Virus record (IMG/VR): IMGVR_UViG_2703718818_000013
Reading direction: 5' to 3' (one strand)
DNA length: 16,015 bases
From: a virus
Lineage: Duplodnaviria > Heunggongvirae > Uroviricota > Caudoviricetes
The position numbers were made by a program. This document shows, in pieces, positions 9,001-12,000 of this stretch (its first letter is position 1; the number at the start of each line of letters is the position of its first letter).

Positions 9001-12000
9001 AGCTACCCACCAGCTCTGCGATCTCAACGCTGGTCATGGATGCTTTGCCGTTAAAAATTACGGTGTTCACTGCCATCTCCTTACGGATAAATTCTTTTAA
9101 GATTCCGCACTTTCGTACTTATTGGTGCCGAACCTTCCTTCAGTTATCCTGTTGATCCCTATAAACAAAAGAACCAAAGGAGGTTCGACATGAAAGTTCA
9201 GGCCGTTGGTTTATTCTGGTTTCGCGATGCGATTCAGTATCATGAGCTCAAAAATATTTTTACTGATGCTGATGTGCTCTCCGACAGTTACACCGAGTAG
9301 AAACACGACGCTGAAAAATTGATTAAGCGTGTCGAAAGAAGCGGGCAACGAGTTATTAAAGTTGAAGCGGATACAGCCGAGTTCATCGCCTGGTGTACAA
9401 GCGAAGGCATTGGAATCAATGCCGAAGGTAGAATGCAGTTCGCATCCTTTAAGGCTTACCAACAACTTCTCAGCGAACGCTAATGTGATTGGGGCAATCG
9501 AAATGGTTGCCCCATCGTATTTAATAGTTATTTTTTTCGCTCATATCACCACCATCACTTCTCATCCTCTGTGTGCGCTAAGCTTGGGTGTGGGAAAAGC
9601 TCCGGTAGATCAGGACGAAATTCATACGCCTGGACTTTCCCATCAACCGCCTTAACCAGAGACGGAACAAATTCAGGAGAAATTTTTTTCTTCCCATTCA
9701 GCCAGTCGCAAATTGTTGACTGCGCGCGACCACAACGCTTTGCCAGAGCAAGCTGGCTTCCTGCAATATCTACAGCCTTGGCTATACCTTCATTTTTCAT
9801 ATCGACCTCCAGCCTTATGATATTCACTATAGCGATTGAATAAAGCGATTGCAATGCGCGAAAAAGCGGTTTGTGTATATATCGCTAAGGCGATACACTA
9901 AAAGGACAGAAAAAGGAGGACTTATGAGCTTTTCAGACAGGCTACAGTTAGCTATGACTATCCGAGGATACTCACAGGGAAAACTGGCCAGAGAAGTTGG
10001 CATGGCTCAATCGAGCGTCAATAAACTGGTTAATGGTGCCACGGGTTCAAGAAAAGTTGTGGAAATCGCCAATATCCTGAACGTACGCCCTGAGTGGCTA
10101 TCATACGGCGTTGGCCCTATGAACTCAGAAGAAAGCACATCCTGCAATCTGACACCGCAGGAATCATATCCCCCGCAAGAAAATGATAAGGATATTTTTC
10201 GTGTGGAAGTCCTAGATATCGCTGCCAGCGCGGGACCAGGAACATTCCTTGTTTCAGATTTTGCAGAAACGGTCCATGCTATAGAATTTTCACATGACGC
10301 CGCAAGACGTCTGTTCTGTAGCAGGCCAGCAAATATCATAAAGATGATAACAGTTGATGGCGACAGCATGGCTCCTACTCTGTGTGCAGGAGATCAGGTG
10401 TTTGTCGACGTATCCGTCAGAAATTTTGAAACTGACGGTATATATATTTTTATTTTTGGGCACACCTTCCATATCAAACGCCTGCAAATGCAAGGGATGC
10501 AACTTGCTGTTATATCAGACAATCCGGCCTACAAGGAATGGTTTATAAGTGAATCAGCTGAAGAACATCTATTCATAATGGGGAAAGTTCTCATTCATCA
10601 GTCAATCCAGTATAACAGGGTCGGATAAGTCAACATCACCGGCAGCTGTATTGCGCAGCTGCTCTACTTTCCTGTATCTCAACTCCCTACGTATCGTCTC
10701 ATTTCTCTCATAATCTGTTCTTTGCTGCCCAAAATACATAGCTATAGCGATTGACATAACCAAACGCCTTGGCTATTGTAAAATTAAAACAACAGGAGGC
10801 TCATATGAAGCATGCAGTTAAGGTGATGGATGAAATTGCAGCACAAATACAAGAAGGCGGCTCGCTGCTTGGAATGATCTATTCCTACATGTCAGAAAAC
10901 GGAGCAGAAAGTGAGAGGGTTTATAATGCAATCAGATGCCTGATGCGTTCCCTGCAAAAAACAGAAGAAACTGCATCAATTTTTGCAGAAAAACTATGTG
11001 AGGCAAAAGCTATGGTTTCGCATGGTCACTTTTTTGGAAAAATCCGTGCCCAACGTGAAGCCTGCGGCTTAACGACCACCGAACTTGCCAAACTGCTTGA
11101 TCTCGATGAAGAGATCATCCTGCAATGGGAGAGCGGAGAGTTCGAACCGACCATCAGCATGCTTATCCCCCTGGCAAACGTCCTTGGGTGCGATCCTCTT
11201 TCTTTGCTGGATGAAAAAGATAGCGCGTCTGTTATTCGCGTAAATGTGCCAGAACCACGGGAAGAAAGTATTGGCGCACGCATCAAAAGCGCCCGTACAA
11301 AACTGGGATTAACCGAATCTGATCTTGCCCGCATGATTCATACCTATAGTGACCCCATAAACGACTGGGAATGCGGCATCCATGAAGTTCCAGCTGATCA
11401 GATAGTACCACTGGCCAGTGCTCTTAATTGTGACCTGATGTGGTTGTTAACAGGCAAATCAGAAGCAAAGGAGTAGCAACAATGACTGGCAATATCCATG
11501 ATAAGTATGAAGGCTTATGCCTGGCACCAGATTCCTTTGCAAACAATATCCATAATTTATTATGCGCAGTTGTTGTATTACAAATGTCAGACAACGACGC
11601 AATAAAAAGAACAGGTGATGAAGTTCTTGAATTTGCACGTTGCTATGCTGAAGCAGCTGCTGAAAAAGAACTAACCAGTTAAATAGAACAAGTCATCTCC
11701 GGGTAATATATTACGGCTTAATCGCCGGGGATTATCACATCCTTAATCCACAGGAGGTTTTATATGACCTTTATAAAACATAAGGCATCACACAAAACAG
11801 CCTGCCTTATTGCACAGCACGGGAAAAATTACATGCATATTGCCTGCTTGTTTCTGCGTAAAGCATATGGGAGATAATAATGCATCAGAAAACAGCAGAA
11901 CACGAGCAAACCAGAGTATTGCTGACCATCAAAAACGGGAAAGTAATATTAATTCGTCATGTTCATGACGATGAACTTGTAGGAAGTCTTTCAACATTCC

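Follow-up and report, generated by a model that had tools for sequence, protein, structure and literature searches.

A reading frame on the plus strand of the window (the whole 16,015-nucleotide stretch of phage DNA analysed here) begins at a strong translation start and meets a single in-frame TAG after 36 codons, with another 60 sense codons beyond it. An earlier note on this DNA had offered three readings of this arrangement: an amber pseudogene, a gene expressed in full only in a suppressor host, or a genuine 36-aa peptide with the rest fortuitous. Here we asked which of these readings accounts for the in-frame stop.

The reading frame and its surroundings

Direct reading of the sequence confirmed the frame as first described, with an ATG at 9190, a TAG at 9298-9300 and a length of 98 codons. 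The frame (9190-9483, plus strand) consists of 36 sense codons beginning with the ATG, the TAG, 60 further sense codons and a TAA at 9481-9483. The near-ideal spacing of the Shine-Dalgarno sequence held as well, since AGGAGG at 9178-9183 ends 6 nt 5' of the ATG, and the GGAG, the spacer and the ATG were identical in 8 of 8 aligned loci. The statement that the post-TAG portion has no start of its own was nearly right: the sole nearby candidate is a TTG at 9319, which opens a 54-aa mechanical ORF and has no Shine-Dalgarno sequence. Gene callers will list just a 36-aa stub at 9190. The features of the region are as follows.

8363-9076, minus strand: Rha-family regulator (PF09669), divergent from the gene and the next gene of the rightward early operon, which here lies on the minus strand
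9122-9189, plus strand: conserved cassette leader of about 70 nt, kept where synonymous sites are saturated and the left-hand neighbours differ
9177-9184, plus strand: Shine-Dalgarno sequence AAGGAGGT with an AGGAGG core, read from the sequence
9190-9297, plus strand: codons 1-36 (MKVQ...SYTE), the part that would still be translated, only beta1 and alpha1 in the predicted model
9298-9300, plus strand: amber TAG at codon 37, from TGG (Trp37) by a G-to-A change at 9299
9301-9483, plus strand: codons 38-97 and TAA, intact and presumably now untranslated (alpha2, beta2, alpha3 and alpha4 in the model)
9490-9537, plus strand: intrinsic-terminator-like hairpin (9490-9514) and T-rich tail, from the terminator scan
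9555-9800, minus strand: 81-aa YdaS/Cro-type HTH gene (PF15943), convergent with the gene
9854-9826, minus strand: PR-like promoter of the cro-type gene, from the promoter scan
9924-10628, plus strand: cI-type repressor with HTH_3 and S24 peptidase domains

The neighbours were identified by the RefSeq annotation of near-identical prophages and by Pfam on identical loci (PF09669, PF15943 and PF00717), and PR-like and PRM-like promoter matches were found back to back in the spacer between the cro-type and cI-type genes. Because of these identities and promoter matches, the placement of the frame between cro and Rha, convergent with cro and antisense to the early-right transcript, is accurate.

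The amber codon replaces a conserved tryptophan codon

In near-identical prophages RefSeq has an uninterrupted gene here for a 97-aa 'hypothetical protein' (WP_000867913.1 and WP_000867909.1), and the region was present in 75 of 5,426 complete E. coli genomes. These proteins and the PHROG family phrog_4753 represent the same gene as the frame of the window, with the same Shine-Dalgarno sequence, leader, terminator and Rha-cro slot. Relative to the nearest intact allele (WP_000867913.1; the allele of locus L001), G9299A was the sole difference inside the gene. The gene in the window is thus identical to that of WP_000867913.1 save for TAG in place of TGG at codon 37, and hence encodes 36 residues; the Shine-Dalgarno sequence, start codon and terminator, as well as codons 38-97 and the TAA, are the same as in the intact alleles. 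G9299A was also the sole substitution across 9006-10213 relative to L001 and a second locus, L011.

We then compared 38 gene copies drawn from complete genomes, IMG/VR contigs and a Phytobacter genome, the window included. Codon 37 was TGG in 36 of the 38 copies and TAG in two, namely the window and one related IMG/VR contig. Whether codon 37 is a sense codon elsewhere, the question posed in the earlier note, was thus answered by every intact homolog examined, in all of which it was TGG, and the first of the three readings, an amber pseudogene, was borne out. All 13 cluster representatives, which come from Escherichia, Salmonella, Klebsiella, Serratia and Pectobacterium, had Trp37, and the residue was at least 90% conserved among 116 distant members that share about 30% identity.

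Between divergent copies, dN/dS was 0.05-0.26 overall, 0.05-0.17 for codons 1-36 and 0.15-0.31 for codons 38-97. Because dN/dS is low on both sides of codon 37, the post-TAG stretch is genuine coding sequence in the relatives. The impression that these 60 codons look protein-like was therefore correct: they share homology with a conserved protein, and in relatives purifying selection acts on them. For these two reasons the reading as a genuine 36-aa peptide with the rest fortuitous fails. The earlier note had also considered that the post-TAG portion might have no homologs anywhere, and such homologs exist. Since the TAG would stop translation after 36 residues, the window carries a disrupted allele of phrog_4753 and not a functional member of the family.

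The lesion is of the same kind as in the classical amber (TGG-to-TAG) mutants of phages, a GC-to-AT transition that turns a Trp codon into a UAG that is suppressible in principle. Unlike these mutations, the lesion in the window arose in nature: it affects an accessory gene that is probably non-essential, and wild E. coli isolates carry it, with no sign of a suppressor host or of mutagenesis and with an unremarkable substitution spectrum. A mutagenised or laboratory origin was considered and rejected, as the substitution spectrum against the closest relatives was balanced.

The amber allele is carried by a circulating E. coli lineage

The exact 36-aa product was called on 83 contigs of the protein collection and indexed in 93 blocks, and the exact intact protein was found on at least 999 contigs of the same collection. 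Seven loci from different sequencing runs carried the identical 294-nt TAG-bearing gene. The flanks of these carrier loci were 97.4-99.98% identical to the window, one of them reaching 99.98% over 6.1 kb and the others having more divergent flanks. The TAG-bearing IMG/VR contig is distinct from the window, with a mosaic patch at about 6.5-7.5 kb and about seven other differing sites. Among the 75 complete E. coli genomes with the region (81 copies), none matched the 60-mer of the TAG allele at 100%, and a TAG-bearing 31-mer had no match in species-representative genomes. The exact neighbouring proteins were all named Escherichia coli by their sources, and Shigella as host, to which the shortness of the carrier contigs had pointed, was for this reason not supported. 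The TAG allele is real, lineage-specific and carried by a circulating E. coli lineage. Being lineage-specific, repeatedly sampled and free of follow-on decay, it is most probably a young pseudogene.

The same gene is broken in other prophages

A second, independent amber was found at codon 36 (GAG to TAG, E36am) in IMG/VR locus L035, in an allele background that differs from the window at 8 other sites; E36am was absent from the complete genomes. Further disruptions were a frameshift in an A5 run at codons 42-43 (P0283 and P0017), a frameshift after Gly52 (P0016), and junction truncations after Thr62 (P0014 and P0284) and after Ala89 (P0274). Because these independent disruptions (E36am, the frameshifts and the junction truncations) exist, the gene fits a dispensable one. 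The ambers of codons 36 and 37 sit 4 nt apart, and two ambers at adjacent codons could hint at selection instead of neutral loss. Since 4 of the 42 single-base routes to a stop fall in codons 36-38, the probability of such adjacency by chance is about 0.1.

The stops of the window as a whole were surveyed by setting every long frame of the closest relatives against the window. The TAG at 9298 was the only internal stop in a real gene of the window; other flags lay in non-coding frames or at ORF ends. A TAG at 11474 was examined as a second anomaly and rejected, as a common 223-aa variant normally ends there: this TAG replaces the CAG-CAA-CAA-TGA of some relatives and leaves the neighbouring HTH protein 3 residues shorter.

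The repaired protein belongs to a family with a confidently predicted fold

When codon 37 was restored to Trp, the repaired protein matched the phrog_4753 HMM over positions 1-97 of 97 (E = 1.5e-49). This PHROG is a 97-aa phage protein of unknown function, and the repaired protein had no significant match in Pfam, NCBIfam or PADLOC. A profile search of 1.84 billion representatives returned 1,119 at E <= 1e-3; most are about 100 aa long, and a few carry the domain two or three times. Judged by this profile, the intact protein is a member of a superfamily of about 1,100 clusters (50% identity) that has no Pfam model. Indeed, a Pfam scan of 116 family members gave 0 hits, 10 longer, multi-copy or extended members yielded nothing usable, and all named members are annotated 'hypothetical'. 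Searching PDB sequences with a profile brought up no relative, even with the cut-off relaxed to E <= 10, a search of phage DNA returned just one irrelevant 70-nt match, and nothing was found in the literature under the accessions or the PHROG number. A Sinosporangium locus (L007) was rejected as a homolog, its match of 45% identity over 42 residues being too weak.

An AlphaFold model built on the 116-sequence alignment reached a pLDDT of 94.4 and a pTM of 0.84; it replaced an earlier run with 13 close sequences, which was discarded at a pLDDT of 52.9. The model has six elements: beta1 (residues 5-10), alpha1 (14-21), alpha2 (34-50), beta2 (54-59), alpha3 (62-72) and alpha4 (78-96). In the model W37 sits at the start of helix alpha2, and a chain that stops at residue 36 lacks four of the six elements. 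The sole structural relative of the model was SO3848 (PDB 2OX6) of Shewanella oneidensis, an Aca2-like putative regulator (PMC8434428). The family differs from HTH regulators of the Aca2/YdiL/SO3848 type in that the intact protein is just 97 aa and has no recognisable HTH: no HTH family in Pfam matched the repaired protein or the 116 relatives, and the structural matches were not HTH proteins.

The gene has its own signals and occupies a variable slot

The conserved leader contains weak candidates for a sigma-70 promoter, TTGGTG at 9122-9127 followed after 17 nt by TATCCT at 9145-9150, or alternatively TATAAA at 9160-9165. As the promoter scan 5' of the gene found no site at the threshold of 9 of 12 consensus matches, we can only infer the expression of even the intact gene. 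The leader also contains an anti-Shine-Dalgarno stretch, CGAACCTTCC at 9129-9138, which is complementary to GGAGGTTCG at 9179-9187, and it can fold so as to occlude the Shine-Dalgarno sequence and the start codon (MFE -22 kcal/mol, z -3.2). No compensatory changes were seen in the leader hairpin, in which substitutions break pairs, and a structured leader RNA is a candidate feature that stands unproven.

At the other end, the terminator-like hairpin closes a monocistronic unit and is conserved even where synonymous sites are saturated. In 7 divergent loci, all 63 cells of its 9-bp stem were paired (100%), and the 4 variable stem pairs showed one-sided changes that kept the pairing. The tail ends in a T7 run at 9531-9537, which is T6 in most relatives.

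In E. coli prophages the order was always Rha (minus), the gene (plus), the cro-type gene (minus) and the cI-type gene (plus). The gene was opposite in orientation to cro and Rha in all E. coli loci and lay beside several cro/cI immunity types, the adjoining cro/cI pair ranging from 100% identity down to 33% or undetectable. Homologs in three other phage sequences had the same cro-convergent arrangement. In two divergent phage contigs (28-36% identity) the homolog is convergent with a small gene in the cro position and divergent from the replication/cII-like side, and in one of them (L048) an S24 repressor lies beyond the cro-position gene; the third is a homolog of Elizabethkingia phage EKP1. 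Two further homologs, one from a Salmonella plasmid and one from Burkholderia phage Bcep176 (gp17), lie in immunity regions, though not in the exact slot. The family is not restricted to phages: in environmental bacteria its distant members stand alone on the chromosome, and no partner gene recurs beside them.

The slot can hold other cargo. In strain U90 and others, the same 93 nt of upstream sequence are followed by a bssS-family gene, so the slot is fixed and its cargo variable, as in prophage morons. Like other lysogenic-conversion cargo such as lambda rexAB, the gene is a small self-contained unit that has its own Shine-Dalgarno sequence and terminator and runs opposite to the flanking operon; of an own promoter, the conserved leader offers the weak candidates described above. 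As far as sequence can tell, the flanking signals and the variable slot mark the gene as a self-contained cargo unit.

Alternative explanations for the in-frame stop

That there is no gene at all, and that a chance open frame lies behind a fortuitous Shine-Dalgarno sequence, would draw on the estimate in the earlier note of about 0.05 for an open frame of this length with one stop. It is not ORF statistics that decide the matter: the frame is not a chance ORF because the repaired protein is homologous end to end to phrog_4753, and with a full-length match, 1,119 family cluster representatives found by profile, dN/dS well below 1 and a confident predicted fold, we regard this reading as practically negligible. 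A sequencing or assembly error at a codon that is truly TGG would account for a single-base difference from the nearest intact allele, but the same TAG was found in a non-identical IMG/VR contig and at seven loci from different runs, and the 93 indexed blocks of the 36-aa product also speak against it, which makes an error extremely improbable.

It is very unlikely that the TAG gates or tunes the expression of a conditional gene, the full-length protein being made by amber suppression or by natural read-through of UAG. Natural E. coli seldom carry amber suppressors, and UAG is read through at a basal rate of about 1% or less. The strong Shine-Dalgarno sequence and start, the terminator and the 60 downstream codons are all intact, and the allele persists in many isolates without further decay; a young lesion in a 294-nt target would, however, account for this missing decay equally well. 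The TAG is restricted to one lineage, with TGG in all other homologs, and a glutamine or tyrosine inserted at the invariant Trp would probably impair the protein too. Full expression in a suppressor host only, as the earlier note had proposed, is formally possible and finds no support: a tRNA scan found no tRNA gene within the window, no other real gene of the window has an internal stop, and the TAG is confined to one lineage. For programmed read-through or reassignment, the in-frame stop was not conserved among homologs, being absent from the 75 complete genomes and from all other loci. We assign a similarly small probability to a selected truncation, in which an N-terminal peptide of 35-36 residues is active or the host lineage benefits from losing the full protein. 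Two independent ambers in neighbouring codons, one at W37 in the lineage of the window and the other at E36 in L035, would fit such selection, as would the sampling of the W37am allele on 83 contigs and at seven carrier loci with varied flanks. Yet adjacency by chance is expected in about 1 in 10 cases, the other disruptions fall elsewhere (codons ~43, ~52, ~62 and ~89), the abundance of the allele may reflect repeated sequencing of one clone, with the intact protein on far more contigs, and a fragment consisting of beta1 and alpha1 is, going by the model, unlikely to fold alone.

Discussion

Taken together, the results make it very likely that the feature is an amber nonsense allele of a conserved, uncharacterised 97-codon cargo (accessory) gene of E. 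coli lambdoid prophages. The lesion itself is ordinary, most probably a recent loss-of-function allele and a young pseudogene, its youth suggested by the remaining 60 codons, an undecayed relic. The oddity of a strong start followed by an in-frame stop is explained as a natural knock-out allele. We propose that one G-to-A transition at 9299 turned the Trp37 codon TGG into TAG. Ribosomes would still initiate at the strong Shine-Dalgarno sequence and ATG, and would release a 36-residue fragment that corresponds to beta1 and alpha1 of a predicted six-element alpha/beta domain. The protein is probably non-functional, because the fragment holds just these two elements, and no downstream gene should be affected, the unit being monocistronic and ending in a terminator of its own.

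The role of the intact gene can be sketched more tentatively. It may be a 'moron' cargo that lies antisense in the early-right operon, possibly expressed while the prophage is repressed and, in lytic growth, silenced by PR transcription running towards it. Its function we infer solely from the predicted similarity in fold to one uncharacterised structure and from the position of the gene; the product could be a small cytoplasmic domain of a binding or dimerisation type, akin to the C-terminal part of SO3848 without its DNA-binding HTH. The loss may be tolerated because the gene is dispensable for the phage.

A bolder account of the intact gene, to which we give little credence, is that it is the phage-borne member of a large unmodelled family whose copies in temperate phages keep turning up in immunity regions, as a rule beside cro and in antisense orientation to the early-right transcript. 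As a copy of the C-terminal domain of SO3848/Aca2-like regulators that lacks the HTH, it would bind another protein, for example a regulator, in the lysogen, and the ambers at codons 36 and 37 in two lineages would be the mark of selection for switching the gene off or for retaining a short N-terminal peptide, not of neutral decay.

For the amber allele of the accessory gene, our preferred reading, the practical value is limited. Nevertheless, amber carriers and near-identical intact prophages form a natural pair in which the role of the gene in lysogens can be tested. The parent family matters more than the lesion: it is widespread, unmodelled, confidently folded in prediction, and recurs in immunity regions.

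Additional amber codons

Another amber codon was found in the amber gene (the 97-codon prophage accessory gene in which TAG replaces Trp-37 in the window) at L035:4106-4108, a homologous locus on IMGVR_UViG_2850796239_000011, where Glu-36 (GAG) is changed to TAG one codon upstream of the window's amber. The E36 amber is a single G-to-T change in an allele background that differs from the window's, and it arose independently of the W37 amber; the chance that it would adjoin the window's amber was about 0.1. None of the 75 complete E. coli genomes carried the E36 amber.

A further TAG, at window 11474-11476 (+), is the stop codon of the HTH gene 10805-11476, at a position where some relatives have CAG-CAA-CAA-TGA. 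The TAG thus leaves the HTH protein 3 residues shorter than in those relatives, and ends the HTH gene without overlap of the next gene's ATG. The 223-aa form of the HTH protein is common, with the exact sequence found on 199 contigs.

Homologs and their annotation

A homolog of the amber gene's product (33.7% identity, E = 2e-9) is encoded in Elizabethkingia phage EKP1 (OM284015.1) at L042:3501-3785 (+). 'Hypothetical protein 21' of the deposited annotation (3564-3896, -) runs antisense to this homolog, so that call may be on the wrong strand. EKP1 resembles enterobacterial lambdoid phages in the genes beside the homolog (DUF4222, HTH and toprim). In E. coli A34, the RefSeq-annotated 200-aa protein at L003:2760-3362 (+) is the same 97-aa gene, called from a start 103 codons further upstream, and the conserved SD and ATG are at their usual place inside that call. 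Some distant members of the family contain repeats: P0020 (506 aa), P0025 (206 aa) and P0038 (319 aa) carry the ~90-residue family domain two or three times per polypeptide, and no other Pfam domain was found in these three proteins.

RNA matches and the mosaic patch

Two Rfam matches, both above the gathering score, were found just upstream of the ORF 6626-7489 on the - strand:

Window 7247-7334, - strand: C4 antisense RNA match, 82 bits
Window 7359-7435, - strand: isrK Hfq-binding sRNA match, 60 bits

Both matches are within a mosaic patch (window ~6500-7500). Of the 153 differences that separate the window from IMGVR_UViG_2675903661_000021, a contig of the same lineage with the same TAG that is near-identical elsewhere, 146 fall in this patch, a pattern that indicates recent recombination inside the amber-carrying lineage.

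The shared leader and the terminator-like signals

The tail of the terminator that directly follows the amber gene has a T7 run (window 9531-9537, +), where most relatives and IMGVR_UViG_2675903661_000021 have T6; because the locus L050 aligns to the window without gaps, T7 is common to at least L050 and the window. Two features were found at the start of the gene:

Window 9186-9171, - strand: terminator-like site, a 5-bp stem GAACC...GGTTC followed by TTTTGTTTAT, a weak consensus match only
Window 9122-9192, + strand: conserved leader, with complementarity between CGAACCTTCC at 9129-9138 and GGAGGTTCG of the SD region at 9179-9187

The terminator-like site overlaps the amber gene's SD and is where the early-right transcript would exit the antisense amber gene, before Rha. 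The leader is predicted to fold into a hairpin (MFE -22 kcal/mol, z -3.2) which, if formed, would sequester the amber gene's SD and start codon; no compensatory substitutions were found in this hairpin.

When L005:2501-2842 (E. coli U90) was compared with window 9100-9192, a bssS-family gene was found in the amber gene's slot. The 93-nt upstream sequence, SD and ATG included, is common to the amber gene and the bssS-family gene of other E. coli prophages. Thus, the slot exchanges cargo behind a shared leader.
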